This document shows, one piece after another, positions 18,378-62,063 of a DNA stretch of 64,000 nt. Source of the DNA: Takakia lepidozioides (taxonomy: Eukaryota; Plantae; Bryophyta); assembly GCA_030704615.1 (NCBI GenBank), contig CM060733.1, forward strand, positions 2,232,001 through 2,296,000. Reading direction: 5' to 3'. The stretch's first letter is position 1, and the number at the start of each line of letters is the position of its first letter. The notes beneath the pieces are model-generated. The model was not told the DNA's origin and ran no database searches. It worked only from the letters and a program-made list of their open reading frames with translations. The translations under genes were made by a program, and so were the position numbers.

Positions 18378-21300
18378 TGTCTCACCAGAGAGAAGAATCC
18401 CTTCCATCTCTGGCCGCCTCAAGAGCCTTGAACAGATATGACTTAGTCCATGCATCTGCTGATACTTCGACGGTGAAGGATCCTCTTCTAAGTAACTCCC
18501 GGCAGGTCAACCTGGTCGTTATGGAGGAACGTAAGCTAGCAGGCGTATCATATCTCTCACTACTACGCAGGGTAATGGCCACTGATCCCGAGGTCAATAA
18601 TCTTGTTCAAAATTTGTATGTGAGTTCTGTTGTGACGGAGAAGTTGGTGAAATGTAATATAGATTCATCTAAACAACAATACCTGCAGAGAGGGAGCAGA
18701 GAGGAGGCACCTAGAAACTTGAAAGTATGTGTATTCAAGTTCAAGAGCTAGGGAGATTTAGAAACATACATAATGTGACAGTATGTGCGTCAATTCAAGA
18801 GAGGGAGTCTAAGACATCCTCATACATTGCACGACACTGCACCGGCCGGCCTCAGCAGGGACTGGAATCATGGATTAGATCACATATGTAAAACTTCAAA
18901 TATTAATTAGGGTCTATGGGAGTCTGGAGAGAGTTATATGGACAAAAAGGAAGTCGCTAGGAAAGGAAAAAGTTGTTCAAAGATTGTGATCATATAGATC
19001 TCGAATCACCTACTTGCGGAAGCCAAGGCAAGTGTAGTAAAGAATTTTACGTACATGTTTCAGAATTTTGGATTCGGAATCATTCCAGAAATTTCAGTCG
19101 TAGAGATTTATTGATCTGCAATGTTTAGGAATTTGGATAAGATTGATGTATTGATATATAGTGACTAAGTATGTGAACTGACTGGGGATTCGAGGGCAGG
19201 CTGTAGCAGAGATGCTTGCAGTTTTCCTCATCGTGTTTACAGCAGGTGGAGCAACGATTGTCAACGCCAAGAATCATGGGGACCTGACCCTGTTCGGGTT
19301 AGCAGCTGCTGGAGGGTTGGCTGTCACGATGATGATCTTCTCTGTCGGTCAAATATCAGGAGGACATGTGAATCCTGCTGTAACAATTGCCTTTGCATCA
19401 ACACGGACATTTCCATTGGTTCTGGTAAGCGACAAAGTCAGGAAATTATGTTCAGGGAAAAAAGAGGAAATTACTCGTGCAGAGCCTCCGATGATGAATT
19501 GAACGATGTCAAGTAATATTCAACATCACCTGTAGATCATATACATATACATTAGTGCAAGCAGCTCTGAACATTCGAGCGGGGGTTTCTCACGGACAGT
19601 TGCATGTGAATACCTGCAGATACCCAGATTCGTTTTCTGGGGGTAGTGACCGACCTTCTAAGCTCATGTCGTGCTGTGCTGTCTCGCACATGTATGTCGG
19701 ACATGGTTTGCAAATAGTCCGCGACTGAAATCTGTTCGAAGTCCCACCCAAAACCGACTACCTAGTGAAAATGGCCTCAACATGCTGTCCAGATTCGTGA
19801 ATTCTCTTGTTCATAGTACATATATCTTAGATTTCAAATGTCAGAGGAGGACATACTGTTCGAAAAACTGGGGAACGAGGATTTCGCGAACCGTACTACC
19901 GTCAAACGTCGAAAAGCAGGAAATGGCATCTACAAGTACCATTCAACTCCTCATACAGGATCGTATTGAATTTCAGGTTCCTATATACATTGGAGCGCAG
20001 TTTGTTGGAGCCATAACAGCAGCCGCTGTTCTAAAAGGGCTATATAATGTTGATGGAGCAGCAGTTACAGTTCCATATGGAACCAATTTGCAATCGTTCT
20101 TTGTTGAATTTCTTTGCGGATTCAATCTTATGTTCGTTGCTACTGCAGTTACCACAGGTTACCAAACTGTGAGTTCCTTTCCCGATTGTCTTCTTTTATC
20201 TCCAGTTTCTGGAACCTCATAGATCTATATTGCTTCTTATTACTGAGTATACATGTAAAGGATAATTCTGAATGCCCCTCCATAAGTCGTTGCACCGTCA
20301 TCGCTCTGTTACACGTATATACATGTAAGCACTGTTCAAAATGCACAAAGTGAGAAGATTCTGAGCCCTTTCTTGTTGTTTTTGGGCTGCTTGTGGAGAG
20401 GCCCCTCTCTCTTTCTTGTTTCATGTTTCTCTTCTAGTCCCATGCCATATGCATAGATCTGTCCTAGTGCTGTATTTCATATGTTCAAACAGGCTCCACT
20501 TCTTTAAGGATAATAGAACGATATGGTCGAGGTGAGTCTGAGACTTCTTAATCAATTAAGGTTGACATTTACTTTCATCGTCACGAATGCAGTCCGGGGA
20601 GCTGGCTGGAATAGCCATCGGAGCCACAGTGACACTCAACGTCCTTTTTGCTGGGTATGTGAACCTATCTAAAGACATCTTAAAAGAAGTACAGTCCTTG
20701 ATCATTCACTCCACCCATTGCTGCTTGTCGTGCTGAACCGCATTGTCTATTGGACCTCCGGTCTCGACTCTTCTGACGGAATTAAGTTTACCAATTTCTG
20801 GACAAACTTGTTCCCAACGGGCGAAATTTTAGTTTCAGTAGATTCAGGACTAGTGGTACTAAGTTATGTAATGATAATGGACCGATACAAGATTGGGATG
20901 CTTGGGCCTACATTCGCTGATTCCATGATGTTTGCAACCTACAACATATTGAACAGATTTCCTGATTGATAAATAGAGTACTTACAACGGCCTGGCTTGT
21001 TCACGATGAACTTTCATCTTCAGTTTTCAGCCTGAAAATCATGATCTGCTAGATTAGAAGCCTGCATACTCTCCTTCAGACTGGGTATAGTAACTTGACT
21101 AGCATGTTAGCTCCCTCAATTTAACACAGAATTTCACTTTAAAATTTTGAGAATTTAAATGGAATTTACTGAATGAGATTGTTTGCACCTTCTTATACAT
21201 GGACTGAGTGGCCATGCTGTTTTTTTGTGCTCAGTCCTGTATCAGGGGCTTCGATGAACCCAGCTCGAAGTTTGGGCCCTGCAATAGTCGCAAACAATTA

Positions 21301-22616: not shown

Positions 22617-23213
22617 CTAGCATGAGACGAATGCATATTGAATATTCAGGGGGAGCATGTCTGCTTGGGCATACGCAAAAGAAACAGAACTACTTGTAAC
22701 CATCGGCCCCCCATTGTTGACAAGGCATGAAGTAGTAGTACCGAACCGCCGGAACTCCTTGGGATCCACCAAAGTTGCCGAAAGATTTAGGTCTCCACAA
22801 CTGGCAATGATGTTTGTTATTCTGCAAGCAGGATTTTGGCAAACGTCAACAATTTGCACCTGGTATTGAGGGATGCCCTGTGAATTAAACCTCTTTTCCT
22901 GTGAGACTCTGACGTCGCTTGCAGTGCAACCCTTGGTGAAGTTCGAATCCCTGACCTCCACCCCACCATGAGAGAGAAGCTTACGGTTGGGGCAAGTACT
23001 GACAGTCGACTGCATCACGCCCTTGGCACTTATCTCCACCAGGCGTGTACTGGAGTGGATCGCCACCTCTGTCATCTCCGAAAAGGCATCCTGCTCCACT
23101 GCTAACACCACCTCAGTACTCATGGAGAAAACCACCATGAACATGTAAGAAAAAAGCAGCAGAGCTTGGAGGGAAACAAACTGCACCCGGGTGCAGCTAC
23201 GTCTGGCAGCCAT
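22617..23213 (-). CDS. TPD1-like (tapetum determinant 1 family) secreted Cys-rich protein, intronless
   Basis: Hydrophobic N-terminus and RKLL processing-like site, followed by C...DVRVSQ...GIPQYQVQIVDVC...C...CG...SATLVDPKEFRR...CLVNNG.P...VSFAY...C. Confidence 0.88.
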   Translation of the reverse strand: MAARRSCTRVQFVSLQALLLFSYMFMVVFSMSTEVVLAVEQDAFSEMTEVAIHSSTRLVEISAKGVMQSTVSTCPNRKLLSHGGVEVRDSNFTKGCTASDVRVSQEKRFNSQGIPQYQVQIVDVCQNPACRITNIIASCGDLNLSATLVDPKEFRRFGTTTSCLVNNGGPMVTSSSVSFAYAQADMLPLNIQYAFVSC

Positions 23214-24833
23214 GGGGACTCTTTGAACAGGAGAAAATGGCCGACTGGAACTTCAGCCTTGTGCACAGCCCGTGCACAATAGAACTGAGTCTGCCAATTG
23301 ATGACTTGCCCAGCACCAGATTTCTGCCAACCACTGCTCTCCAGCAATGGTCGCAATCGGGAGATAACGACAAAGTTGACAAAGCTGGTATTGATATGCA
23401 ATCTCTTGAGAACTGTGCACGGCCAATTATAATAGAATAATCGTTGATCCCAATATTAAAATATCAATTGGCTTGGCCTCATACGTCAATGTGTCAACTT
23501 TGTCGTTGGTAGGTTATCAGGGACCCACCCGGTTAATTACAGGTTATTTGTCGGGTAAGGGTAACTATAGCCCCAGGTTATGAGCATAAAAGAGAACAGT
23601 GGACAGTGAACACCGTCATTACTGGACAACTCAAATACCCTGTGAAACACCCTGAACGTGTGAGTGAATAGCATCTCAAGACATAGAACAGACCCCCATA
23701 TCTTTTAAGTGGATGGAAACGGTTATAGTAGCTATGGTTTCGTGGCAAATAGTAGTTTTCTTTTGATGTCCTATTTTCACTATATACATTGAAGTGCACA
23801 TTGAACCTGAGCGATAGGTTCTGCAGGCCTAGGTTCTGCAGCTTACCTAGGGTACTTCAATTATATCCGATGGTAGGCAGGTTATATTTCGGTTATAACA
23901 AAGGCCCGACTTGAAATATCATCACATGTTATGATTTGTTCATGAATTGGCAAATAACCTGACCACAAATATTGTTCAAATTTTCATAACCGTAACCTTC
24001 ATTCAATGTGCATATTTCACCTGGAACAAGAGGTTATTTACTGCACGAGTCAACTTGTATAACGTGAACCTCATGAGAGTTGAAAAAATGAGAACCGACC
24101 AACACTGCCCCATACCACCTCAAAATAGGCTGTGCAATAACATGCCTCAAGAAGAGTGCGAGTGGATGTGACAACCAACGTCCCTGGAAATAATTTCAGT
24201 TGAACCAGCCAGTAGCCGCTCATTCCCAGCAGCAATAGGCTAAGTGGGTTGGGCAGTCGGTTGCTATCCCTTAGTAATAACTATACCTGGTCAATTTCCG
24301 AGATAATGTTGTTACAACTGGTAATATTCCTAATGATTTATTTTGTGTTAGCTATAAATCCGGCCCTTATAAATATCAACCTGTTGACAACACAAGTGTC
24401 AAATGCACAACAATAAATAAATAAATAATAATAAATAATAATCACAACCAGTTTTAAGCAATTCAAACAAGTGAAGAACATTGTATCCTTATAGAAGTTG
24501 GACCTGTCAATGCCTTCAAACCACATGGAGGCCAAGAATTGAACCTGCGTGGACAGGTGAGCTGTGATAGCAGGCAGCGAGTGCAAGCAGGCGTGGGGCT
24601 GGGGCTGCGGAGAGCAACGTCCAGACTTACTAGGGTTTGCCCGCTACCCCGGCCTCTTGAGTTCAATATTTTTTCACCTAAACGCCCTTCCTAGGATGTA
24701 ACCCGGCTTGGCATGTTGGATTTCTGCCATGTGGCGGACTTAGACGGCCATTTCCGTTTTTTGTAATATAAGAAGGGCCGGAATCCGTCCAGGCCTTGCC
24801 AACTAAGGCAGATTTCCTGTCTGTAATGTATTA

Positions 24834-26480: not shown

Positions 26481-27071
26481 CTACCGCGTGCATGAGACGT
26501 GTATAGACTGTATATGCAACGGGAACATGTGTGTCTGGGTATATATAAAAGAAACAGAGCTACCCATACTCATCGGCCGGCCATTGTTAACCAAGCAAGA
26601 TGTAGTCGTGCCCAATCGCTTGAACAATTGGGGGTCCACGAAAGTCGCAGAAGCAAAGTCTCCACAACTAGCAATAACGTCTATTATCTTGCAAGGAGTG
26701 TTGCATAAGTCAATAATCTGCACGTGATATTGGGGGATGCCACTTTCACCAGGCACAGGGAGCTCTTGCTGGGTGATGCTCATGTCGTCTGCAGTGCAAG
26801 GATATTGGGTCAAGGTCCTGACATGCACGCGTAGAAGCTTGCGGGTGGGATAAGACTTAAGCTTGACAGTCTGCAACTCATCTTTGTATGCTGTCTTCTC
26901 CACCAGTTGTGTGGAGTGGATCGCCACCTCTGCGCCCTCCACATTAAAAGAACCCTCCTCCAAGGGCAAAGTCAGCTCATTCACACAGAGAACCATCAAT
27001 AACATGTAAGAAAGAAGCATACTAACTAGAATGGAAGAAAACACTGCACTGAAGCCAAGTTGGGCAGCCAT
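26481..27071 (-). CDS. TPD1-like secreted Cys-rich protein, tandem paralog, intronless
   Basis: Same motif set (RKLL, GIPQYHVQIIDLC, SATFVDPQLFKR, CLVNNGRP, VSFIY). Start taken at MAAQLG (27071). Confidence 0.88.
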   Translation of the reverse strand: MAAQLGFSAVFSSILVSMLLSYMLLMVLCVNELTLPLEEGSFNVEGAEVAIHSTQLVEKTAYKDELQTVKLKSYPTRKLLRVHVRTLTQYPCTADDMSITQQELPVPGESGIPQYHVQIIDLCNTPCKIIDVIASCGDFASATFVDPQLFKRLGTTTSCLVNNGRPMSMGSSVSFIYTQTHMFPLHIQSIHVSCTR

Positions 27072-27704
27072 GGGAATGGAAGAATGGAAGAGCCTAGAAA
27101 TCCAGTAGACTAGAGAGTGGATTGATCTTGCCAATAATCCATTAAATACCCAAGCATGCGCCCCCGCCAGCTACTCTCTAGAAGCAGCCTGAGGCCATGT
27201 AGGAAAAAATCTTCCAGTAATGGCGGCACGATTTCTCCACACGCTTCTTCTCCACTTGCCAAACGGTTAATAGTGGATGTGGATAGCACAGTCTTAAGAA
27301 TATTCTATGCACCTTCTCTTTCCAGGGACGAACGTGAAGGCATCCGTACACGAATCTTCCATACTGGTCCTTACACGGGGGTGGAAAGTGCTGGGGCTGG
27401 GAACGGGCCTCGTCATGGATGAAGAGCCCACCATAGATGAACACTGCTGTCTCTCCCCTTTCTATCCAGATGTGATCCATGACGATGTTACTGAGTTACT
27501 GACTCACTGAGTTTTATTGGCCAATTCTATTGAAGAACTCGTTCTCTGAAATATATGTCACGAGCATGCTCTCATTCCGCCCCTTCATCCAGTGCGTTTA
27601 CCGAGGCATCTAGGGACACCAATGGAATTTTCTCATAGGTTGGCTTTGGATGAGGAGGGGATGGCTTTAGGGTAGGCTACCTTACACATACACATGGGGT
27701 CGGG

Positions 27705-27873
27705 TCGACAACCAGCATGTAGCCAGTAAGGACACATACCCTCTCACAAGTGGTTGTGGGTTCAATCCACCTGTTGGAAGTCATTGCGGTGTCCACCTTC
27801 CCACCGGAAGGCAGTAACACTATGGGGTCAAGTGTACACCATAAGTTACACTTGCTTCAGCAAAGCGTCCACC
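27705..27873 (+). mobile_element. tRNA-derived SINE copy 1
   Basis: A-box-like TAGCCAGTAAGG and B-box GGTTCAATCC (27759-27768); homologous to 39818-39988 and 56103-56220. Confidence 0.7.
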
Positions 27874-28049
27874 TTACATGTCGGGCCAGTTCTTATACTT
27901 CCCTTCATGAGGAAGGCCACAATGGTGTGACTACGTACATTCTCAGATTCTTCTCTAAAATGTGAGAATTGCAAGTTCAGCAAAAGAAAAGAAAACCAAG
28001 AAAAACCAAAAAACAAAATTGCAAGAGGAACCTATTTGGTTGGACTTAA

Positions 28050-28873: not shown

Positions 28874-29329
28874 GAGCATGGCCAGCAACGGCAATTTCAG
28901 ACGCGCCAACTCCAAAAGTCGTGGCCGACGGTTTCGGGGCTCTTCCCGCGTCCCCGGCAGCACCACCCCACTCCTTAAAGTGCCGGCCGTCTTGCAAATC
29001 CGCTCTTCAAGCACGACATCTAGAATTCCATTGTCGTCCCCGACCCCCCCCCCCATTCCACGGCAACGTCTTATCCGGGCATTGTCGCTCACATGTGCTG
29101 ACGGGTGGCGGGGTAGGTGGCAGGGCCCACAAGTCAACGTATGCATCTCAGTCTGGCACGCATCTCAGCCGTGCGCCTAGTGGGAGGGGGGGTTTTGGCC
29201 GTCAGAGGCTGCCATGCTGCTGGCCTTCACACTAGCTGCCACACTACTATGCGGGCTCCGGGCCAAAAATGGGCTAGTATTATAATGCCGTTGGTGTGTC
29301 TGTTTACCGCGCCACTGTTGGTCATGCTC
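28874..29329. mobile_element. Tourist-like PIF/Harbinger MITE
   Basis: TIRs GAGCATGGCCAGCA / TGTTGGTCATGCTC, with a TAA target duplication on both sides. Confidence 0.8.
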
Positions 29330-29332
29330 TAA

Positions 29333-30476
29333 AAGCATCTCCACCCTATCCACTAAAAACTTAACTGTAAAGCTCCATATAGGGACACCTATTCCATGCG
29401 CTAAATATTATTTTACGTTGCTCTCAATGCATCGACCCACCGCAGATGCGGAAAAGCCAATGTTATATGCCGTCAGGCTCGTTGATGACGACCCCAACGA
29501 AATAGCATGTGGCGGGAAGCTAGATGGGTGTGGATTGTTGGGTTTGTCGAGTATCCAGAAATGCACAGCGGCATTAAGGATACTCGCTTATGGAGTAGTT
29601 GCCGATGTTGTTGATGAGTACTGGAGGTTGAGCGAATCCACTACTATAGAGGCTATGAAGAGATTTGTACATGCAGTTCGTGCCTGTTTTGAGGAAGAAT
29701 TTTTTCGTCAACCAACTGCACAAGACATACAGACTCGGCAAATGCGGATCAATACTACTCGAGGGTTTTCCGGTATGTTTGCCTCTTTAGATTGTATGCA
29801 TTATGTTTGGAAAAACTGCCTTGTTTCTTGGCAGGGCCAGTATCAAGATAAAGATGGAAACCGCAGCATTGTGCTTGAGGCAATTGCATCTCAAGATCTT
29901 TGGATTTGGCACGCCTTCTTTGGGCTGCCAGGCGGAAACAATGACATTAACGTTCAGGATCGCTCTCCATTGGTTGCAAATTTGCTCAAAGGAGAGGCTG
30001 AGAATGTCACCTTCACTATCAACGACAATGTCTACAAGAGGTATTACCTCTTGGCAGATGGCATATATCTCTCTTGGTCCATTTTTGTGCAGACAATTCA
30101 CAAGCCTCAAGACCAAAAGAGGGTGCATTTTGCAATGATGCAGGACTCAGTGAGAAAGGACGTCGAGAGAGATTTTGGTATACTACAGAGCAGGTTTTCA
30201 ATCATACAAAACCCTTCAAGACAGTGGGACGTATACACTATCAAATCTATCATGTTAGCATGTGTCATACTTCATAATATGATAATAGATGACGAGCAAG
30301 ACACTGCTTTTGAAGGCCAATTTGATGAGCACCTAGTAGTGTCCATTCGCAAAGGTCTCAGTTTTGAATCTTATCGTCTAGGTACTGTAGAAATTGAGAA
30401 TCTTGAGCAGTACCACAGATTGAGAAATGACCTCATTGAACACCAATGGGAGTTGAAAGGTGTCACAATGTTTTGA
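29333..30476 (+). mobile_element. PIF/Harbinger DNA transposon with N-terminally truncated DDE transposase (ORF 29418-30476)
   Basis: QKCTAALRILAYG, ASLDCMHYVWKNC, WIWHAFFG...NNDIN, YLLADGIY, RKDVERDFGILQSRF and CVILHNMI. Left TIR-like AAGCATCTCCA follows TAA. Right TIR not found. Confidence 0.9.
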
Positions 30477-34199: not shown

Positions 34200-34468
34200 A
34201 CAACCGCCACACGGATGATCCCTGGATTTCAAAAAAAATAAAAAACACGCGACCGCCGCATGGCGGTCGTTTAATTCAAAGATTCAAAATAAAAATAAGC
34301 GACCGCCGCTAAATAACGGTCGCTTCATTTAAAAAATATATATTAAGTAAGCGACCGCCAAACGGCGGTCGCTTAATTTAAGAATCAAAATCAAATCAAG
34401 CAACGGCCGCCAAATGGCGGTCGCTGCATTTTTCAAAAATTTACTAAAAAAAAAGACCGCCAAACGGC
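34200..34468. repeat. Second array of GCGACCGCC...GGCGGTCGC palindromes; the last one is interrupted by the gypsy element
   Basis: About 5-6 copies. The last reads GACCGCCAAACGGC|TGTCG (element start). Confidence 0.85.
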
Positions 34469-35151
34469 TGTCGTGCTTATACATATCACTACACAACTAC
34501 ATCGTTGTCCAAAACCACACAACACATGTGCACGCCACACACTAGTATACCACTAGTCCAACCACTAGTCCAACCACTAGGCTATAACTAGTCAGTCACT
34601 AGGCTGCCACTATGCTGCCCACTATGGCAGTCATTAGTCCACACAATGATATAGAAGAATAATACAAGCACAAACTCATGCGAGCTCACAAAGCTGAAGC
34701 ATAAACTCATGCATATATTACCTCATCACTCAAATACAAGTCAAGTCAAGTGCACCCCACGCCATGGGAAATCCACACTACGGTGCCATAGCTAGGTGCG
34801 GTGAGGCTCAACTCGAGAAAGATGAGCCTCTCGCGCTTGCCGTGAAGATAACCACTCCAGGGCCTAAATCCACCTTGACCCCTGGATTGACACTTGAGCC
34901 AATCCTAAATGTCAATATGTAAAAACTAGTTATTTCCTAGCTAGTTTCACACTAGTGGTAAAATAACTTGACAGCTGTCGTGCGCATACATATCGCTACA
35001 CAACTACATCGCTGTCCAAAACCACACAACGCATGTGTACGCCACACACTAGTATACCACTAGTCCACCACTAGTCCAACCACTAGGCTACAACTAGTCA
35101 GTCACTAGGCTGCCACTATGCTGCCCACTATGGCAGTCACTAGTCCACACA
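34469..35151 (-). repeat. Terminal repeat block of gypsy element 1: A (35151-34976) - GC - B (34973-34647) - T - A (34645-34469)
   Basis: Two ~176 bp direct repeats (about 9 differences) flank a ~327 bp unit that matches 58374-58694. Each unit is bounded TG...CA. PPT-like AAGGGGGCGAT at 35162-35152. Confidence 0.85.
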
Positions 35152-35411
35152 ATCGCCCCCTTAGCTGGTGTTTAGGTCCCTCTAAGTCCAGGTAGCCACA
35201 AGATGTGATAGTGACCATAGCCTCACTATGTCCTCTACCACTGTCCCTATTACACTGAAACTCGATAGATCAAGAGGCCGGGTGTAAGAGTTGCCCCATC
35301 GTTAGTCGCCGTCTTGCAACCTGTGAACTTGAGCCTGGGATCTCATGTATTGACTCATATGAGCTTGGCCTCCCATGTCTTGTTAGCTGCCTCTAGTCAT
35401 GTCCACTGCTA

Positions 35412-35560
35412 CTATCCCAAGCAGTGTGGACATAACCAATCTCCATCAGGAACCCTCTCAAGAGGTGGTGTCAAGCATTCCATATGCCAACCTCTTGAGC
35501 ATCGATCACACACCAGCATGGTGGCTGCCCCTTTGGCAGACCCACAGAGCATGCACCTCA
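35412..35560 (-). other. PHD finger at the integrase C-terminus
   Basis: CMLC...MLVCDRCSRGWHMECLTPPLERVPDGDWLCPHC is a C4HC3 PHD. Confidence 0.92.
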
Positions 35561-38500
35561 AACCTGCAAGTACCACTGCCAAGTTTGGGTCAGTTCTGCC
35601 ATCGACATTAGGAAGGTGACATGGCGTACAATTACGCACATGGTCTTTCCAAGTCATGCCATCCCGACCCTCCAAGATCAGGACCCCTGAGGGCAACACC
35701 TCTCGAACCCTCAGAATAACACGCCCTGCAGTAACATCCAGGGTCGTAGGAGCAGTCTGCAGCAAATAAACATAGTCACCAGGACGATATCCTCCACCAC
35801 GTATAGTGGCATACCTCAACGTATCACGGTGTTGTGCAATGGCAAGGTTCTCAAAAGCCATGTGCATGACTTTCTTGAACAACTCTGCACGCTAATCACA
35901 TGCACGTACCCACACGTCCGGATCATCAAGGTTAAGGACTTGAGCAGTGTCCCTACGAACGGCTGCAGGCAAATCCGGCTCTCGGCCAAAGAGAAAGAAA
36001 TATGGTGAGAAGGAGGCAAGTGATGTTTGTTTGCTGAACCTGTAGCCCATGGCTAACCAAAGAACCTGAAGATCCCAATCTCCTAGGTGTCCCTTCTTCA
36101 AGCCATACTTGCGCAAACCCCTCTTCACCGTCTAAACAACTCTCTCTACCAAGCCATTGGCCTCAGGATGATCCCGAGAAGTGGTGCAGTGGTCTATCAA
36201 AGCTTTATCACACAAAGCCTGAAACTCTCCCAAGAACTCTCTTCCTTGGTCCGTGAGTACCTCAGTTGGAGCACCGAATCGGCTAAGCATACAATCCAAG
36301 AATGCATATGCAGCCCCCTCACTAGCCTTATCAGGCAATGGAACCAACTCAATCCACTTGGAGAAGTGCTCCACCATCACCAACACATATCTGTGGTGAC
36401 GCATAGTCAGTGGCAACGGTCCTGCGAAGTCAAGACTCCACCTGTAGCCCAATCCCATGATTGGTAAATGACGCAACTGTGGTGTAGGGGCGTTGAATGA
36501 AGCATGCACCCTATCACACACCATGCACCTAGCCACGAACTGTTGCACCTCTGTATGCATACCACGCCACCAATACTGCCCCTGCAGTAAACTGTGAGTG
36601 CGTCGCACTCCAAAATGCCCCAACTCCTCATGGGCATGCCGCACTAACCGTGCACGCTGTGTGGGGTGAGGCACAATCCTCACCCGACCATCCTCCCATA
36701 CTCGGAGTAGGTGTATCCCCTCCCACTTGAACCTCTTGGTTCGTTGCAAGATCCGATCCCTCTCCTTGGCAGTCACAGTGGCTGCCATGTCTCCAGTACG
36801 GAGGTAGTCCAACACAACCGAATCCTCATGTATATCTCTGGTACCACCTGGCTCATCACTAGCCTAAGGATCCTCAGACACTTTGTCTACAGTCATCCCT
36901 ATTGTAGGTCCAACCTGATCTCCCGATGCCAAGATACACAAAAAGGCAGATGCATGCCATCCCGGCACCATCCCCGCATCCGTCTCACCATGTCACCGAG
37001 CTCCAGTGTCATCCTGCTGGCTTGTGCATGGATTGCGACTCAATCCATCCGCATCCCGATTGACCAAACCCGGTCGATGCACAACCTGAAAGTCATACTC
37101 CTGGAGTATGAGTGCCCACCGTGCAAGCTTCCCCGTAAGCTTGTCTGACTCCATCAACCACTTGAGTGGCTGGTGATCCGTGACAAGGGTGAAAAGATTG
37201 TTGTATAGATAGCACCTGAAGTGTGCCACGGCCCACACTGCAGCTAAGCACTCTCCCTCATATGAGCTGTACTTAGCCTCTGCAGCGTTGTTCGAGCGGC
37301 TAGCATAAGCCACTACAAACTCTCTTCCCTCATCATCCACCTATGTGAGCACCGCTCCAAGCCCCAGCATGCTCCAATCCGTATGCAGCTGAAAAAGACG
37401 TCCCCTGATAGGTCGTCTCAGGATAGGCGTCGAGATTCAACCTCGCCTTGAGCTCTTGAAAAGCTCGTTCCTGCTCATCTTCCCACTGCCACTCCTGGTC
37501 CACTTTGGTCAGCTTGGTTAGAGCCTTTGCAATGGCACTAAATCCCTTGACAAACCGTCTATAATAGTTTGTCAACCCCATGAAAGCTCGAACTCGGCTC
37601 ACATCCGTGGGGCGTGGAATTTGTGCAATGGCCTCTACCTTAGTCTGCTATACCCCCAATTCTCCAGGATATATGATGTGACCCAAATACTCAATCTGGT
37701 TGTGGAAAAACTTGCACTTCCCCGGATGCAACTTCAATCCATGTGCTCTCAAGCGCTCCAATACCACTTGAAGGTGTCTCTCATGCTCCTCCACCGTAGC
37801 ACTAAAGATGATGATGTCATCTATGTAGCACCGAGCAAAGTCCACCCTTGCTAGAATCCTATCCATGACTCTTTGAAACTTTGCAGGAGCGTTCTTAAGC
37901 CCAAATGGTAAGAACCGCCACTGATATAGACAATCCTTGCCGTGCTCATTGATCCCCCAGAATGTCGTCTTCTGCTTGTCCGCCTCCTTGATCGGCAACT
38001 AGTGATATCTGGATCGTAAATCCAAAGTGCTAAAGACCTTAGCATGCCCGATGGCATCAAAGATCTCCTCTGGTGTTGGCATGGCATACTTATCGGACTT
38101 GGTCTGACGATTTACAGGCCGGTAACCACCGCACATACGTCTCTCCGTCCAATTGCCATAGACATCCTTCTTGGCTGACATCACTATGGCTAAAGCATAC
38201 TCTCCACCAGAGAGCTCCACCAAACCTGCCTCCAATAGATCTTGAGTCCTCATCTGAATCAAAGACCTCTCCATGTCACTATATCTATAGGGTCTCCGAA
38301 AGAATGGCGTGTCAGTGGCCAACTCAATATGGATCTCTTGACCCTTCAGTGCTCCCAAGTCCTTCAAACTTAAGGCAAAACAATTTCTGTAAGCCCTCAA
38401 GAACCGCCGTATACGTTGTCTCTCTCCTCCGGTGACAATGGGTCCAATGTCAGGCTCCCAATTGTCCTCCGTAACTGCAACCTTAAGTCCAGTGGGTTTA

Positions 38501-38799
38501 GAGGTAGATGACGCGTCCAGTGGTTGCTATGTTGCATCCTCTTGAGCAGTACTCCCTACCTGCTCAGTCAATGACAAGGCCTCATCCTGCCCCATCATCT
38601 CATCCTCGAGGACTTCCTCAACCCGAGAAAAATCCCCAACCTCATCCATCATCGCCACCTTGGCTGCCAACTCCCTCTGAACCTCGAGCACCTCCCACGT
38701 GTGCCATGGATGCCTGCACCCCGTGGTCCTCTCATGCTCGCCCCCACTCACTGCCTGTACCGTCTCGGTAGGTAGAGAGACCATCGAGGGAAGTGTACT

Positions 38800-39574
38800 C
38801 CGCACTCTTCGTTGCTCAGCCATAGCCAAACTGATAATCCAAGTCAAGCAATTGAGATCCATTGCTTGCCCCAACATCTAACGACGCGATGCCTCAGAAA
38901 GAGACGGCACCGCCGTGGTACCAGTGGTAAAACCCATTGCCCGCTCACGCTCGTCAGCATTAGGCTCCACTAACTGCTGCAACTGAGCATCCCACAGGAG
39001 GCCAGGTCCACTATCCCGGTCCTGGGAAGCTGAGTAGTATAGGTAATGTTGCTCGTGGTTGACCCACCTTGTTGACCACTGCCAAAGGCGAACGGTCATC
39101 GTGTCTCACACGCTGAGACTGCTTCCCTGTGTCCAAAATGCTATCCACTGTGAGGTGTGCTGGCCGCTGCACCCCATCAAATGCACGCTTGAGCAGTGCG
39201 GGTGGCATCAAGTTAGTCCACCATAGCCGTGGACGATGAGCCCGTGACCCCACTGTAGCTGCATCTAGCAACACTGCTGACCCAAGCCACGACCGGACTT
39301 GATGCACACTGGCCATCACCCTGGCCCGAGAATCGCTCATTAGTGGCACATTCTCCAAGATGTATGCTGGAGATACAGCTTGATGAAGCTGCAAGTGGCG
39401 CGAAACCCGCACCATCTCCCAAAACAGACCCGACCTCGAGTCTTGCAATCCATTGTCATGCCCGGCTGATGAATGCTCTTGGCAGGGCCAACCTGCCACT
39501 ACCAGATCAATGGAGCCAACCTGCTCCAAATCATGCGCCCCCAGCTTCCGAGGTGGTATGTGCCCATTATACAA
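38800..39574 (-). pseudogene. DNMT3-like C5 cytosine DNA methyltransferase domain within the gypsy pol
   Basis: Motif IV DLVVAGWPCQ, SGLFWE, motif VI ILENVP, motif VIII HRPRLWWTNL and motifs IX-X ERERAMGF...RR*MLGQAM. Motif I lost by truncation. Confidence 0.88.
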
Positions 39575-39811
39575 CCTGAGAAGGGATATAAAGGAGAGCC
39601 GGGCTCTCTTCCCCTACCTCTTACTATTTACTAAGGGCGCTACCACATGAGCGGCATTGGAAGTCCCCACAACCTGCTAAAGCTGATTGGTCCCGACAAC
39701 AAGAAGGTAATGTGACGTGGTGCTTATGTAGAGCCTCTCCGCGAAAATAGGATTTTCCAGGACTATTGCCTCGAAATAGTCCTGAAAATCCGAAATGTTA
39801 GGGAAACATAT

Positions 39812-39988
39812 AAAAAAGGTGGACGCGTTGTCGAAGCAAGCGTAACTTATGGTGTCACTTGACCCATAGGGCTACTGCCTTCTGGTCGAGAGGTGGACAC
39901 CGTAATGACTTCCAAGAGGTGGATTGAACCCACAACCACTCGTGAGAGGGTATGTGCCCTTACCACTGGGCTCCATGCTGATTGTCAA
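39812..39988 (-). mobile_element. tRNA-derived SINE copy 2, ending in a T6 Pol III-like terminator
   Basis: Minus strand reads GAGCCCAGTGGTAAGG (A box)...GGTTCAATCC (B box)...GCGTCCACC TTTTTT. Confidence 0.72.
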
Positions 39989-41776: not shown

Positions 41777-44485
41777 TTATTTCTTCTCCCTCCGAAGGTG
41801 CTCATTAGTTGCCAAAGGCAGATACCATTCCGGGCCAAAACCAGCCGCAGCTCTTGCACTCTCATTAAATGGAGCCTTCAATGGCCCTCGGAAGTATTTC
41901 CGAACAACAGCATGAAAGGCAGCCACTACATGCTCTGGACTACCGCTACTTCCTCCCAGCGCTTCTCGAGGGAGTTTGCCACCTTGGAAGCTTGAGGCGC
42001 CACTCCTGCTCAGAACTTCCTTGATTCCAACTCTCTCTCCAACAGCAGCACCTTCCTCTGCCTCCACACCTGCCAAGGAGCACATGGAATGTGCCAACTC
42101 CAAAATCTGGGTGTTCCCATCGCTGAGAACCTCAAACATTTGCGAATTGCTGTCACTTAATGTAGCATTGACTGTTGGTTCCTTATGTACAATATCTGCA
42201 CAGTTTCTCTCGCATCTATTGCTACACCCCTCACCCTGATGAGCCTCTAGTTGTGTTTCTGACCTTTCCTCTTTTGGAGGACACTCCTTTGTAATCCCCA
42301 AAACCCCATTGCAGTGGAAGGCATTAGGGGCTGGCACAACTGTCCGGGCTGCCCGTTGGCAAAAAAATGTGAACCATTTTACACCAGCAGCACAGTGAGT
42401 GATTTCCTCCGGAAATATCACCGACTCCAATAAACTAGCAGTGGGGTAGTCACCTCCTTTCCGAAATCGAGAAATTGTGGTTGGTAGAACATCTAAACCC
42501 CGCGCCTGTATGCAGCCATAAAACACCGTCACTAACACCGAGAGTGCTCATAAGACGTAACACCATGAGAGAGAGAAAACTGGTCTATCAGGTGGACAGT
42601 AAGCCAGGATAGATTGTGAGCAACTTAGTTAAGAACCCACCATAAGTGCCAAGTTCCTCCAATAGCCCATACAGGACGACAGTACATATAGCTCAGCAGG
42701 AACACCAACACACAGTGTACAGCATCAAAAATCTTTTCGCCCCCACTCCTCTCCCTCTCTACCTCTCTCTCTCTTTTCTTCCCCTCTTATGCACATGATC
42801 TCTCAAGGACAGTAAAACGTCAAAGCCAAGCATTGGGGGCAAGAATAGCAGTGGTCAAAAGGGCATTGAATTTTCCAGGATGATGTCTGCAGCAGCCCTT
42901 CCATCAACACTCACTTTTGTACTGCCAGACTGTAGCAAAGTGCTACACCAATTTCGGACTGAGATTCCAGACCATGGTGGGCACAAACCCAACAACTGGC
43001 TCTGGGAGGGTTGACATCCAGCTTGAACAACCAATTCAGTAGGCAAAGTTGGTAGAGAAAGGACAATTGAGGATCTCTCTACATGTCCCCATCTGGGACT
43101 TCCCGAATCAAACACACTGACCTTCCCAACTGCCGCTTCCCAAGCCCAAAGGGAAGGGAGGCACACCTCATGAACACAATGTTCCACTGCAAGACGAGCA
43201 GAGAGATCATGGGCAGTAGCCTCTGCCGAATCCCAGAGACCATCATGAGCAGGTAATGCACCATAGTAGGACCCTAGCTCTTCCAACCTTGCAGCAAGCA
43301 ACCGAAAATGGCGGCCTTCATCCTGGGCAACCTTCACAAAGTCATCAAAAAAGTCCCTGGGCATTGCCTCTGCCTTCCCAAATCGGGCAATAATGTCCTG
43401 CATAGAGAGAAGGAGAGAAATAAAAATGAGAGAGAGGAAGGAAAGAATGGCCAAATGTGCAGGAGATAAAAGGCTGAGATTTTTGGATCTATTCATAATG
43501 GAGCCTACTCAAAACATTTTGGAGAAGCCAGTGATCGAGGGGTTGAGAATGGTGTTGAAGGGAAGCACAACGATATAGCAGAGATAAGACCAAAAAGAAA
43601 GTGCAGACTGACAATTATGCTTTGTTTAAAGACTGCAAACTCACCCAGCTTAAATCTATGGCCCAGCTCTCAGTATGGACAAGGCTATGCAGAAGGGCCT
43701 GACGACTGTGTAGACTGCCACCCTTCCCAAGCTTCGGCATGTTGCTCGGGGACACCAAACGCACCTGCCATCACCATCCATCCATGCATCTCCTTCATTC
43801 CTTCCTGCCATCCTACATCCCTTCCCATATCTGCATTTCAGCCCCAACCCAGACGCACACACTCTCACTCTGTCCTCCCCCTGCTGTCGCCCCTCCTTTG
43901 TCTTTTTCCCAACTTGGGGTACACAGCATCTATGGCCATGTCGATGATGGGAAAGCAACCAAATAATGAGATCTCTCTCTCCCCATGTCCTCTGTCCAAT
44001 ACCCATGATTTCCCACTGATAGCTCAACTCATATTGCAAACTGACCCAGAATGCTCATTTTTCTCTTGCTTCTCTACTTACCAAGTTCAACTTAATTTGG
44101 GCCAAATTCTACCTACTCAAAACGCAGGGGAGATGGTGGAGGAGGGAAGGGGAAAATATTCTCAAGTTGAACACAGCGGCACTAGGGGAGAAGAAAAGGA
44201 GCTTTCTCTCCAACACAACAGACGACCAAAAACACACACAGTTTACAAGAGAAAGCGGGAACAAACGCTTACTGTAGGAAGCCGAGCAGGGCGATCCGGC
44301 ACAGGCAAGGCATCTATGGAATCATCATATGCAACCCGCATTTCGCCCTTCAGCCACAGACTGGCCGCAGCATCTCCGTACGCAGCTTTCGTCCACGGAT
44401 CCTCCGCATTCAGCACTTTCAGAGCTGCCATGACCAAAGTATCCGAGCTGGATGGACCAACATCATCCTTTTGCAGTTCCTCCAT
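41777..44485 (-). CDS. DUF455 family ferritin-like protein (4 exons)
   Basis: Exons 44485-44273, 43764-43645, 43397-43167 and 42505-41777. Motifs PDRPAR, LHSLVHTESWAIDLSWD, DEGRHF, HCVHEARGLD, EEITHCAAG and PFNESARAAAGF. Confidence 0.9.
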
Positions 44486-45095: not shown

Positions 45096-47411
45096 ATGGG
45101 AGATGAAGACCTGGCAGATGTGGGGGATAGGTTGCAGCTGTATGAGCTTGGTTATTCCATAGATAGAGCTTCGAAGACTTTCAACAAAGAGGTCCTGTTG
45201 GAGGTTCATGTGAAGGTCATGGAGCGGTTTGAGGATCGCTACAGAAGCTTCGACGCTGTCGATCCCCAGTGCGGGACATTATTAAAAGCCCTGCCTATTA
45301 TTGATGATGTGTCTATGGGTTCTCCTGAAGGCATGTTGACAGGCTTGCGAGCTGTTGGTATGAGAGTTTTGACAGTGGGCGAGCGCGGCAATGGACTTGT
45401 TCTGTATGCCCATCTCTGCGCCAAAGCTTTTATCGTGGCGTGTTGCCAAAGTCTTCTGGAGGATGAGGAGGGCTTGGGGGTGAGGCTCCTCATCTATGAT
45501 TATGCCGTCATGAATAGCTCCTGGGATGAAGTGCAGTCGCGTTATCCGGAGGGTGCTAAGGTGGCGATCAAGCAGCCATTCTTGAAACGCCTGAAAGATA
45601 AGAGTATTGCCCTGCATGTCGATCATGCCCGGGACATTGTAGTGTTATCCGGCGGCAGCCCCTTGGACGCTTTGGATGCAAACGCTCTACGCGCTCGAGG
45701 AAATTCCAGGTTTGCTAAAACCGATTTTACTGGAGCCATCGAACTCCACTCCCGATCTATTAAAAAGTGCATGGAAGAGAACCCATGGACCTCCCAAAGA
45801 ACGAATACATGCAGGAAAGCGGGTGAATCGATTGAAGAGGGTGGTCCAGAGAGATGGAGGTAGCGGTACTGTCGTATTCGAATAGAGCAGAAGCATGGAT
45901 GAAGCTGTGCAACTATGATAACGCTTTGGCAGATGCCAACAAAGCACTTGAGTGGGAGCCTGGATATGTGAAGAGCATGGTGCGGAAGGGATGTGCATTG
46001 CATGGCCTCCATGAATATAGCCAAGCTTTGACGTGTCTGGAGACAGCCCTCGCCTGCGGCCCAGACGACAAGGTCATCCTGGCAACGCTTGAAAGGAGTA
46101 GGAGCTGTGGAGCTCAAAGCTCATCTGGAATGTTTAGCGACGTCCTCTCCTCTTTTCTGCTAAACGGTGGAACAGGCAACCCACCGGAGTGCGGGGAGTA
46201 CGTTGGGCCTGTGGAGGTGCGTATGGTGCAAGGCAAGCGTCAGAGGGGTCTATTTGTGAACAAAGATGTGCAAGCAGGAGATCTACTGCTGGTGAGTAAT
46301 GCACTGGCAGTTGGACGCCCTGAGAACGACTGCAGCTTCGAGTTTGGGATGATGTGTATTGCAGGGAAGGTCGGCATGGCGGTGAAGGAAGATTTAATGT
46401 CTGCCCTTTCTGCTGCTCTTCTGACTTCCCTAGCTCCTTCAAAGCGGTTGCATCAACTTTATAGCTTGGCTGAGGGGGATGGGCAGAGACCTCTGACTCT
46501 TCCAGCCATGGCCCTATTCCAGCCCAGTAGTGGTTGGGTGCCCACTAGTTCAGAGACCTTGGAGTTTGAATTGAAAGGGTCCGTCGTATCGTCTCGCACA
46601 ATTGCATGCTCGAGTCCAGATTTCTGGCCAGGCATCTGATGGGGAAAGAGTGCATTAGCCCGGGTGTGGGCCTTTGGGTGCTCCCATCTTTCATCAACCA
46701 CTCCTGTGCTCCCAATGCAGGAAGAATGCATGTGGGAGATGCTCTATTCCTGCATGCCATGCGCGACTTGCAGGCAGGGGAGGAGATCACACCCTTGACT
46801 ATGGCAACGGTGATGATATACTGATGCCGGTGAATGTGCGGCAGATCCAGACACGCCAATGGGAGTTCCATTGCAAGTGTACCCGCTGCACCTTCGAGGA
46901 GAAAATCTTCACTGAATTTCACGAGAAATTTGCCTCTCTTAAAAAGTTGCAGAATGTGCAGATTCCTCTAGTTAAAGAACCCAACCGTCCGCCCCCTGAT
47001 TACAAGCAGTTTTGCAAACTCGTTCACATGCTAGAGCAGGTCTTGGATTCCCTCATCACGTTCAAGCCAAAAGAGAAGATGCTGATTCGAGCTTCATTTG
47101 CGTTGATATACTTCAAAAATTTTGAGTATGTGGCATTGCGCCCACTGTCTGGGTTCACGCCACCACCAGCAGAGACCGTGGTCGATCTCATAGCTGAGGT
47201 CTGCCCAAATCACGACGCTGCCTTCCATGTTGCGGTAGTGAGGTTGAACGATTTTGTGAGAAAAGGAGACCAAGTCAGCCCTGCGTTCCAAAGAGCAGAC
47301 CAGCAGGCTAAACAGATTTGTAGAGCTAGGTTGGGGAAGCAGAGTGAGGCAGTAGTTGCCGCTGCAATCCAAGCACGAGCTCAGGTCAGCTACGGTGTTA
47401 GGCAGCCTTGA
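45096..47411 (+). pseudogene. Intronless TPR + SET lysine methyltransferase (SDG35/ATXR1-like), broken by three apparent frameshifts
   Basis: TPR: LRARGNSRF, YSNRAEAWMKL. SET-N: RGLFVNKDVQAGDLLLV. SET-C: SFINHSCAPNA...GEEIT. Post-SET: FHCKCTRC. These are spread over four ORFs in different frames with no evident introns. Confidence 0.8.
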
Positions 47412-55454: not shown

Positions 55455-56102
55455 GGCTGCCAAATCCTTCAAATCTTTCAAACATCAACCGACAGCGGTA
55501 CAAATAAGACCTCAGACTCTCCAATATAAACCCTTCAATGTAAATGTGAAATCTAAACGAAACCCAACTGCTCATAACAGAGCAAACAGCGTGAATCAAA
55601 TCAACAAGATCCAACAAACTCCAGTAACTATGCATACACACATCTGGTGCATGCACCCACAGCAATGGTGTGCAGGTTACAGAGTAGGTGCCTTCATTTG
55701 TTCTCTGCAGCGTCAATCCATCCGAAATCTCAAGAAAAGTTTCTGATTTTGTTAAACCTACCTTCCACAGATTTGTCTCAGTAGCCCTAAACGCCCAACT
55801 TGAAGGTAATAACAACTGGAAATTTTATATCTCCCATCAACAAGGATTACACTTTCACCACTGTAAAATATTCAACATAATTGTTGAATGACACCATAAT
55901 TTACATTTCCTTTCGACATCGTGTGTGTATGTATATATATATATATATATGTGCTAGTCATATGTTGAGTAGTTCAAACTTCAAACCATTCACATCAAAT
56001 GGGTCCTGATGAGATGGTAGCAAGGAATATAATTAGGTAATTTCAAAGCAAAAAATTTAAAAATATATATATGAACCGAAGGAAGCATAAATTATGATCT
56101 CC

Positions 56103-56220
56103 TGACCCCTAGGGCTACCACCTTCCGGCGGGAAGGTGGACACCTTTGTGAAATCGATCGGTGGATTGAACCCACAACCACTTCCAAAGTCTTATATGCC
56201 CAATACTATTGGGCTGAGTA
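56103..56220 (-). mobile_element. tRNA-derived SINE copy 3 (partial)
   Basis: GTGGTTGTGGGTTCAATCCACC...GGTGTCCACCTTCCCGCCGGAAGG on the minus strand. Confidence 0.65.
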
Positions 56221-57081: not shown

Positions 57082-58694
57082 GTGATGACTTCTTATGAGA
57101 ACAATGTTCCTTTTGATTGGAAATGTATTTTATGCAAAAAAAATTAGGAACGGTATAAAAACTTAATGCAGACATGATCTGATGGTACTTTCGTCGGATT
57201 TAGGCAGCATGGCAGGCTTCCTATCAAATCTTCCCCACTTTTTTTACTCTGGATTCACTATTAGATATTTTAGAATGCAAGGGATTGTTAGACAGTGATG
57301 AGTAGCCTATTGGTAAGATATTGTTAAGGTGATGGTAGTGGAGGCGATGAGGTAGAAGATTTGATTCTTGATGGGTGGTAGTGTCATCTTTGGCTTCTAA
57401 GGTTAGTGTTACCCCTTTAATGTGTAACTCCTCTTAGTCCATTTTAAACAACCAAATTTGGACTTCGAGACCAAGTGTGAGTTACACCAAGTAGAGTTAC
57501 ACTCATCTGCCGTGTAACCAAGTATAACCTCAAGTGGAGTTACATTCCACACCATGTATCCCGACTGGAGTTTACAATCCATCTTTGTAAACCACTATCA
57601 CCTAGACTGAAGTTACATTCCTTTCAGTTCCATGTCACTCTTAAGACTAGATGGTGGGAAGATTCAATCTGTTGGAAATCGGCCTTCTGTCTTGTTAGAT
57701 ATTATACGTGTGCATAAACTCCATACATTCTTCCTATGGTTCTCTATTTTATGTGTTATTTTGTTACAATCACCTCAGCCAACTTCCCTCATCCCCCCGG
57801 ACACCCACGAACACAACTATGCTTAGTCAGTCCAAACAACCATGAGACCAATGCCAAAGCCACAGCAACCTTGCGTATTTATACATAGCCAGCAATAGAC
57901 AATTCAATCTACACTGGATGTCCCTACAGAGTCGTGACACCTCAAATAGACACATCTCTGAGTCATACTCGGACAACACTGAATCCGCCACATCCCATCG
58001 CGAACTAAGGGCCACGTTTTCAGGCGAAAACGAGGCCACCCCCATTGCAAAGCAGACAGCCTCAAGATCAAAAACTTCCACCAAACACACTGTGAGTTGT
58101 TAGGTGGTGAACATGTCCAGCACTCCAACTAGCTCCAAACGATCCCATGGAGCCACCAGCCATCCTGCGCCACCCTCTTTACAACCGCACGAGTCAATAT
58201 AACCACTTATGGGCACCAATGAGTTACTAGTGCATGCTTCACCTCCAATACCCACCAATACTAAGGGAATTGCACTCCCGCCTCGGCCGCCATCAAACAT
58301 CAATGCAGGGAGCGATCCACCTCCACCAATATAACCCAATGCGCAGAATGCTAGCAATGCAGTACCTAGTGGTTGTCAAGTTATTTTACCACTAGTGTGA
58401 AACTAGCTAGGAAATAGCTATCTTTTACATATTGACATTTGGGATTGGCCCAAGTGTCAATCCAGGGGTCAAGGCAGATTTAGGCCCTGGAGTGGTTATC
58501 TTCACGGCAAGCGCGGGAGGCTCATCTTTCTCGAGTTGAGCCTCACCGCGCCTAGCTATGGCGCCGTAGTGTGGATTCCCCATGGCGTGGGGTGCACTTG
58601 GCTTGACTTGTATTTGAGTGATGAGGTTATATATGCATGAGTTTATGCTTCAGCTTTGTGAGCTCGCATGAGCTTGTATTCTTCTTCTTTATCA

Positions 58695-58710
58695 CTCGAG
58701 AAAGATGAGC
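58695..58710 (+). promoter_or_regulatory. Putative self-priming primer-binding site
   Basis: CTCGAGAAAGATGAGC abuts the LTR-ending CA and is the exact reverse complement of GCTCATCTTTCTCGAG at 58520-58535. No TGG tRNA-type PBS is present. Confidence 0.75.
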
Positions 58711-61340: not shown

Positions 61341-62063
61341 GGGCCTGTGCTGGTCTGTGGTGGCCCGTGTTGACCTGTGGACGGCCTGTGCTGACTCGTG
61401 GAGGCACTGGTGGACTGCCTAAGGACTGGCATGTGGTCTGGAAGGCCGAATTTTGAAGCTCGTGGAGGGCGGTTTGAGGAGTATCTTCATGATATTCCCA
61501 TGGTCATGCAAGTGAGGATAGAGAGGAGAGGCAGAGTGTTGGGATGAGAGCATGCTGGGGTTAGGCATTGCTTTAGCTTCTCTTCCTCGTAGTTTCCACC
61601 CTCTCATTAGGCCAAGACCTTTCCGTAGGTGGAGGCAAGAGTCAGTCCGGGTTTGGGCTGGGGTGTCCTTGCAGGAGCAACACCGTGGAGTTGTTTTTGG
61701 TGTGGGGGAGTTGTCGTCTGATTTCTTGTGTTTGGATCCCCTCCATACCTGCATGCTTGACTGTGCGCCATGCTAGTTTTGTGTGGGCGCTTGTTTTTAT
61801 AGGTGATTGGTCCGGATTTGATCACCGGCCAGTCCTAGAGCATGCTGTCGATGGTGAGGCTGGGGTGATGACCAGCCAGACCATCATTGTTTCTCCTGTG
61901 GTGAGGTTGGAGGTGATGACCAGCCAACCATAGGAGTGCTTGCGGTGGATGCAGGTACAGGTGTAGGCTATGTTAGGAACTTAGTATTCCAAACCATAAG
62001 CCGCAACAGGTTCTCTACCCGGTTACCTTGTGGAGAGGGGGTTAGGGACATGTTCATGACCGG

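Follow-up and report, generated by a model that had tools for sequence, protein, structure and literature searches.

Retrotransposons that carry a DNMT are known from dinoflagellates and Klebsormidium, a precedent that an earlier note on this DNA had cited and that de Mendoza et al. (2018, PMC5890265) confirm. KnitGypsy-Dnmt3 of Klebsormidium nitens is a gypsy element that combines a Dnmt3 domain with DIRS-like repeats (PMC5890265). Dnmt3 domains borne on DIRS elements were reported to carry out CG methylation, whereas the K. nitens gypsy domain gave none in yeast, a result called inconclusive by its authors, who proposed that the elements methylate their own cDNA (PMC5890265). What methyltransferases do in retrotransposons was an unsettled question in 2018, and the organisms concerned are difficult to manipulate. 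Later papers, in the portions consulted, speak of 'streptophytes' and name no land plants (PMC12344493; bioRxiv 10.64898/2026.05.21.726589). Precedents also exist for other features relevant here. Tcn1 and Tf1/Sushi elements are reported to prime themselves (Neumann et al. 2019, PMC6317226), the integrase of foamy virus cleaves palindromic 2-LTR circle junctions (PMC1180852), and a leaky UAG of the TMV type is followed by CAA UYA, in which the first C is needed (PMC2754532).

We analysed a 64,000-nucleotide stretch of Takakia lepidozioides DNA (the window), which holds two gypsy copies, element 1 and element 2 (Table 1). In element 1, methyltransferase motifs IV, VI, VIII and IX-X (in the numbering used for C5 methyltransferases) are all present on the minus strand and co-linear with RT-RH-INT, as the earlier note had read them. 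The HMM check proposed there gave a match above the cut-off: among 21 ORFs scanned against Pfam, the ORF at 39,011-39,613 was assigned to PF00145 (E=3.8e-13, 50 bits versus a cut-off of 22). Alignment to a Calypogeia protein covers motifs IV, VI and VIII at 39,544-39,023 (70% over 174 aa) and, in another frame, motifs IX-X at 39,018-38,797 (81% over 74 aa). The methyltransferase does lie in the span first claimed for it (38800..39574), but its homology starts at 39,544 and the sequence beyond is an unrelated repeat, which cuts this copy and at which summed depth falls from 1e6 to 2.7e3. In each host run, 23-24 contigs diverge from the window at 39,545 and agree with one another at 80-96%, indicating that other copies extend past the truncation, and 26-31 host-run contigs differ from the window at the frameshift. 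Element 1 is a dead copy, with motif I cut off, a frameshift and a premature stop all seen as had been claimed, and its breaks are private to this copy.

Table 1. Features of the window, with strand and the evidence or detail given for each.
Feature	Position	Strand	Evidence or detail
TAF8	15,096-16,535	minus	
Aquaporin piece	19,662-20,222	plus	
Two intronless TPD1-like genes in tandem	22,617-23,252 and 26,481-27,170	minus	66% DNA identity
Harbinger-type transposase ORF	29,286-30,476	plus	PF04827, 1e-81
Element 1, repeat B2 (3' end of element)	34,469-34,646	minus	
Element 1, repeat A2, 327 bp	34,647-34,973	minus	TG...CA
Element 1, internal B/A junction, predicted integrase attachment site	34,970-34,979	unstranded	10-bp palindrome GACA-GC-TGTC
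Element 1, repeat B1, 177 bp	34,976-35,152	minus	ends CACGACA
Element 1, polypurine tract directly before B1	35,153-35,162	minus	sequence; same purine run before B1 in relatives
Element 1, PHD finger closing integrase frame	35,421-35,555	minus	PF00628 1.1e-11
Element 1, integrase (H2C2 zinc finger, rve core, C-terminal part), with stops	35,685-36,863	minus	PF17921 3.1e-16, PF00665 1.2e-14
Element 1, reverse transcriptase + RNase H	36,900-38,460	minus	several stops, one frameshift near 37,436
Element 1, in-frame amber stop + CAA-starting hexamer, likely programmed read-through site	38,521-38,529 (TAG 38,529-38,527)	minus	
Element 1, DNMT3-like C5 cytosine methyltransferase, 5'-truncated (without motif I)	38,797-39,544	minus	motifs, Pfam, protein homology
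Methyltransferase premature stop	38,880-38,878	minus	alignment with Calypogeia protein
Methyltransferase frameshift at small deletion	near 39,022-39,019	minus	alignment with Calypogeia protein
DUF455 gene	41,777-43,508	minus	
TPR protein gene	45,836-46,639	plus	
Element 2, 5' repeat A, no B before it	58,374-58,694	plus	holds self-primer 58,520-58,536
Element 2, primer-binding site, predicted self-priming	58,694-58,710	plus	exact 17-nt complement of 58,520-58,536
Element 2, long leader with tandem repeats	58,711-62,281	plus	
Element 2, gag, frameshifted	62,282-64,000	plus	runs past window end

The truncating repeat at 39,545 contains no tRNA by ARAGORN, and the 33.5-41 kb region has no Rfam match at gathering level. 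A mid-copy short repeat with a tRNA-like arm adjoins the truncation point (39,816-39,986) and recurs at 27,707-27,875 and 56,077-56,182, and a palindrome-rich mid-copy repeat (34,226-34,473, depth 4.7e3) abuts the 3' end of element 1. Element 2, which runs from 58,374 to the window end, represents the 5' half of another member of the family: its A repeat is 94% identical to that of element 1, and its gag is 53-83% identical to the Marchantia protein P0011. Its methyltransferase would lie past the window end. In the leader of element 2, joints in DNA run X1 skip GT..AG segments at 61,511-61,955 (depth 5,669) and 58,901-59,048 (depth 1,807); the leader copies that lack these segments have likely passed through spliced RNA. 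Among the neighbouring genes, TAF8 has 52-59% identity with its named counterparts from mosses and liverworts, and 40-46% with those from named ferns and gymnosperms. In a tree with no named hornwort or lycophyte, and with two oddly placed algal long branches, TAF8 falls in a bryophyte-containing set (95/91), beside a clade holding Ceratodon (85/79) and outside Sphagnum. A moss host is likely on this placement, for which support is weak.

Searches at E<=1e-3 returned 74 longer relatives, those named coming from Marchantia, Calypogeia, Sphagnum and Klebsormidium, and Closterium was found too. The Marchantia, Calypogeia and Sphagnum models match at 47-71% identity and K. nitens KFL_009030040 at 42%; several include RT in the same protein. 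A metagenome scan added 227 relatives, of which the best 80 were retained as loci, and whole copies were taken from these metagenome loci. Among the best 80 of 227, RT/RH follows the methyltransferase within 2 kb in 50 of the 56 loci that are long enough, and a protease precedes it in 59 of 64. The loci were chosen by their methyltransferase, so copies without it cannot be counted from them. On that point the host runs are informative: summed contig depth of the methyltransferase (1.13-1.25e6) equals that of RT and integrase (0.8-1.2e6), neither value being a copy number; likewise not a copy number is the element depth in the host-species run, about 1e4 times that of unique flank (72). In one putative RNA run a few contigs match at 85-95% identity, which we do not count as expression.

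The methyltransferase of the window differs from three relatives by a dN of 0.25-0.27 with dS saturated, and those of L003 and L005 differ from that of L023 by a dN of 0.28-0.29 with a dS of 1.7. The protein remains 63-66% identical though synonymous sites are saturated. Between lineages, dN is 0.15-0.17 for RT, versus 0.25-0.29 for the methyltransferase, and two close copies give a Ka/Ks of 0.65 for the methyltransferase and likewise for their RT. By these divergences the methyltransferase is under purifying selection (Ka/Ks < 0.2). The earlier note had asked whether other family members lack the domain; relatives carry it at a fixed place, the exception being the K. nitens model P0107, which has a protease and RT with no methyltransferase between them and may reflect loss or a gene-model artefact. 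It had also asked whether the domain is a stray piece of an intron-containing host DNMT, and here the intronless relatives and the purifying selection answer in the negative. A chance fragment of a host DNMT3 gene beside a gypsy pol, which the unrelated repeat cutting the copy just above the domain might suggest, is scarcely credible, given a fixed position in dozens of copies from several genera, the absence of introns and a depth equal to that of RT. Identity to the Klebsormidium element protein is, moreover, 42%, compared with about 22% between the modelled relative described below and human DNMT3A. Element 1 is almost certainly a member of the Gypsy-Dnmt3 lineage, with the DNMT as a fixed and, from its divergence, selected part of the element.

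One locus family is 100% identical to a Sphagnum fallax model over 141 integrase residues, so this Sphagnum-like family is likely peat-moss DNA. Viral contigs gave weak matches alone (17 loci, best 9e-15), with no close viral donor among them. Several Marchantia models, including Mp_Vg00370 and Mp_Vg00540, lie on the male V chromosome and are annotated as hypothetical genes. The question of what the enzyme does becomes testable, because Marchantia polymorpha, a model for genetics, has close relatives that are listed without label as 'hypothetical proteins'. Bryophyte gene catalogues will count such element domains as host methyltransferases.

The earlier note placed the domain inside a gypsy pol, upstream of RT. 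It does lie before RT, but in the window's subfamily it closes the Gag-protease frame, and a conserved stop stands between it and pol. None of that subfamily's 35 linkers between methyltransferase and RT is open, and in six of them this stop is the only one. The stop is TAG in 26 of 34 loci and TAA in 8, and CAA follows in 32 of 34 (the search pattern demanded a stop). Of 23 proteins checked, nine terminate 92-98 aa beyond motif X; two Marchantia models continue into RT. The conservation identifies the stop of the window as a feature of the subfamily and not damage, and it implies that the enzyme closes the Gag-protease frame and that RT and integrase would need read-through. Judged from this pattern, Gag-PR-DNMT is very probably the bulk product, most ribosomes stopping after the methyltransferase, while a minority would read through to make RT-RH-INT-PHD. 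The conserved stop would in this way predict enzyme dosage. Expression at the Gag level is not universal, as these metagenomes also contain a second family that lacks the conserved stop and in which 10 of 21 linkers are open.

The earlier note judged the wording of the motifs to be closer to DNMT3 than to MET1 or CMT, and both the PDB ranking and the fold agree. A family profile searched against PDB gave DNMT3A as the top match (1e-23), then DNMT3C/B, with DRM at 2.5e-15 to 6e-12 and bacterial enzymes and DNMT2 only at 1e-7 or weaker; no DNMT1, MET1 or CMT occurs among the 58 PDB matches at E<=1. The ranking obtained with a single sequence agrees. The predicted fold of a natural relative (pLDDT 72, pTM 0.77) matches DNMT3A/B/C in all the rows listed. 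Relatives are intronless and have motifs I-X in order. Among the best 80 of 227 loci, those covering each position keep the motif I Phe in 75 of 76, the catalytic Cys in 76 of 78, the Glu in 72 of 80, and the motif VIII Arg residues in 65 of 79 and, for the second, 77 of 79.

The domain could have been kept for a role that is not catalytic or not on DNA, such as RNA methylation or nucleic-acid binding in the particle. Its Gag-like stoichiometry would suit such a role, as would a motif IV variant with E-C in place of P-C, Cys kept, found in 68 of the 150 best of 497 clusters of distant relatives and also in loci L048-L080. The element likewise has no added CpG depletion (observed/expected 0.47-0.61, versus 0.51 for the window), and the Klebsormidium domain was without activity on yeast DNA (PMC5890265). 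We nevertheless consider this quite improbable, since the SAM-binding motif I and the catalytic Cys, Glu and Arg are all conserved, sequence and fold are nearest to DNMT3 and not DNMT2, and related DIRS-borne Dnmt3 domains methylate CG de novo (PMC5890265).

A DNA methyltransferase working on the element itself is the reading that we prefer. Our whole account, which we hold to be moderately probable, is that the DNMT is made at the Gag level, packaged, and methylates the new cDNA of a high-copy element. The packaged enzyme would modify cDNA cytosines, and the analogous dinoflagellate DIRS enzymes suggest CG as the likely context; cDNA methylation by the element's own enzyme is somewhat favoured. 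Action inside the particle agrees with bulk expression alongside Gag. The PHD finger, whose best PDB matches are CHD4, PHF12, KDM5A/B, ATXR5 and PHF21A, likely steers integration via histone H3 tails. Readers like those of CHD4, KDM5 PHD1 and PHF21A bind unmethylated H3K4, the state that animal DNMT3 reads as well. This resemblance would also suit an enzyme that acts on chromatin at or after insertion (on the target site, the new copy or sister copies), for example in self-limitation or in setting the state of the site; bulk Gag-linked expression need not imply packaging, and de Mendoza et al. list the option (PMC5890265). Such a role seems unlikely to us, because in this subfamily the stop separates the PHD finger, with the integrase, from the methyltransferase, so that most methyltransferase molecules would lack it, and because the very high depth in the host fits self-limitation poorly.

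Element 1 ends with a purine tract followed by B-A-B, and element 2 opens with A alone. These termini are borne out by host contigs: in one run, 38 with mixed flanks (agreement 0.36), matched on B1, leave the element at the last base of B, and in another run contigs depart where A begins, at its first base. Whole A-body-B-A-B copies occur at six metagenome loci. Among eight whole copies, a number that includes L019 (single B) and the rearranged L033, a 4-bp target duplication is exact in six, differs by one transition in one and is lacking in one. At the internal junction the sequence is GACA-NN-TGTC. Of 28 B ends, 20 have CACGACA as their last bases and eight depart from it through one or two C>T/G>A changes, although the B repeats of different families are otherwise unlike. 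No B precedes the 5' end at any of 26 loci (21 insertions), nor at element 2. Were the intermediate a plain circle whose two junctions are equivalent, A-B-A-body-B copies should arise as well, but no such copy is represented among the 26 5' ends.

The primer site after A1 and the purine tract before B1 define the LTR as B+A, and reverse transcription should therefore give BA-body-BA. Self-priming is predicted from complementarity: pairing of at least 13/14 is found in 9 of 22 5' ends (three different sequences; 0 of 200 shuffles each), 12/14 in three and only 8-11/14 in ten. The A/B junctions are flush in 6 of 13 loci and one base off in four. That of L027 holds a remnant of the purine tract plus filler, and those of L033 and L034 hold 9 nt of the primer site. 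Similar remnants occur at retroviral circle junctions, and the circle junctions of the IS3/IS30 type are a similar case to the internal junction.

The 4-bp duplications flank ends whose sequence comes from the palindromic internal junction. This points to integration of an end-joined, permuted cDNA, and on this pattern integration probably proceeds through the internal junction and not through the cDNA ends. The RNA would start inside A and prime itself, and ordinary LTR-type reverse transcription would give BA-body-BA. The two cDNA ends would then be joined, forming the A/B junction, and within the left BA repeat integrase would cut at GACA-NN-TGTC, the junction already present there, so that the inserted form is a permuted A-body-B-A-B. 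Of the two junctions the left one is likely preferred, since it is the earlier to become double-stranded (a kinetic proposal), and this earlier completion of the left repeat would explain why no 5' end follows a B. Alternatively, A-body-B-A-B could be copied off RNA by a DIRS/PAT-like route, with no end-joining of BA-body-BA. The repeat layout is of the DIRS type, no A-B-A-body-B occurs among the 26 5' ends and the flush A/B junctions would suit it as well, but the conserved primer site and purine tract are those of LTR priming with an LTR of B+A, their remnants persist at A/B junctions (L027, L033/L034), and a DDE integrase and 4-bp duplications are present. We regard the DIRS-like route as rather unlikely.

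Integration through the internal junction is the reading we retain, and the ends suggest an LTR element using a route otherwise known solely from side reactions of retroviral integrases. Software that searches for LTRs and requires the A...A pair to be bordered by a target duplication would overlook such elements or place their boundaries wrongly. We also considered single-B copies (5 loci) as products of 1-LTR circles and rejected this: L019 shares its 3' flank with the B-A-B locus L050 (95-99%), so at least one of these copies is explained by an A-B segment lost once inserted, or by collapse in the assembly. At L069 (14,392-14,864) the 3' end reads B-A and then unrelated DNA, with no second B; this end may be a truncation or a rare insertion by a plain cDNA end. 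A further step, which we offer as a long shot, is that DNMT3 at capsid stoichiometry methylates a conserved CpG of the B arm, five bases from the attachment CA, and that this strand-specific mark directs integrase to one of the two identical junctions. If true, reading of the CpG mark would tie the captured enzyme directly to integration, in an ancient green-lineage clade that ignores its cDNA ends.

At E<=1e-30 the family profile finds 497 clusters, formed at 50% identity. Among the best 150 of these, many have the DNMT between RNase H and integrase (33 RT-RH-DNMT-INT-PHD, plus fragments). This second architecture also occurs in a Chlamydomonas eustigma model, and Closterium models have the DNMT before RT. 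Proteins of the second architecture include P0132, P0056, P0122, P0127-P0129, P0139 and many of P0226-P0365. Quick RT trees, one of them built after 35 of 83 rows had been dropped as near-duplicates or short, join the window to Marchantia and the Sphagnum-like family (SH-aLRT 97). They place the two architectures together with K. nitens on one side (SH-aLRT 91), apart from chromovirus and animal rows. Two methyltransferase-bearing proteins, P0133 and P0057, lie outside this RT clade on long branches. A quick methyltransferase tree, with a prokaryotic outgroup and no host DNMT3/DRM/CMT/MET1 in the set, gives the same local grouping (99) and places the second architecture in one clade (96), as RT does too. 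The Marchantia and Sphagnum-like families are nearer to each other than either is to that of the window, which indicates old paralogous lineages or transfer.

The methyltransferase domain and the DIRS-like repeats were already known, whereas land-plant hosts, the read-through layout, self-priming and 4-bp duplications at permuted ends were not found in print. Land-plant members and a split-repeat gypsy element were not found in the literature searched, most subscription papers and Repbase lying outside its scope. The element is not described in the portions consulted of PMC6453930, PMC11982613, bioRxiv 363937 and PMC9940879. Most of the text of PMC5890265 holds no mention of a PHD finger, a self-priming site, a target duplication or a palindromic junction; Marchantia appears neither in that text nor in three supplements, and the main supplementary PDF may bear on this.

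Several described systems share parts of the design. EpiLTRs/DAM-LTRs are LTR elements with a DNA methyltransferase and a chromatin reader, but their DNMT is sister to DNMT4 and is stated to be distinct from the streptophyte Gypsy-DNMT3 (bioRxiv 10.64898/2026.05.21.726589). SymbioDIRS-Dnmt3 has a Dnmt3 domain, which methylates CG de novo in yeast, and the same A-coding-B-A-B order (PMC5890265). It encodes a tyrosine recombinase, in contrast to the DDE integrase with 4-bp duplications found here; no tyrosine recombinase family was detected among the 21 ORFs scanned, and the rve integrase fills the space from RH to the repeats. With the Tcn1 and Tf1/Sushi chromoviruses, the shared traits are those of a bryophyte Ty3/gypsy element with self-priming and a chromatin reader at the integrase end (PMC6317226), and the differences are a PHD finger in place of a chromodomain, split ends and the methyltransferase. 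In quick trees, in a set with no named Tcn1, the RT lies outside the chromodomain-bearing rows. In foamy virus, too, a DDE integrase cuts an abutted CA/TG palindrome in continuous DNA (PMC1180852), but that junction arises by end joining, whereas here it is preformed inside the repeat and gives the regular insertion end. The stop is a partial match to the leaky TMV type: UAG CAA is conserved, and the second codon, CCA/CCC, departs from UYA (PMC2754532).

KnitGypsy-Dnmt3 shares most with the element of the window: gypsy domains, an intronless and unrearranged Dnmt3-like domain before RT, key catalytic residues kept across the family, purifying selection and A-body-B-A-B (PMC5890265), as well as the RT clade in quick trees and the Ty3/gypsy order RT-RH-INT with a DDE integrase. 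Its domain is continuous with RT in the Pol frame, as reported, and the second family is continuous too (10/21 open); the window subfamily keeps the same frame but interrupts it with the conserved stop. That stop, the land-plant hosts and the very high depth set the Takakia element apart from its Klebsormidium counterpart.
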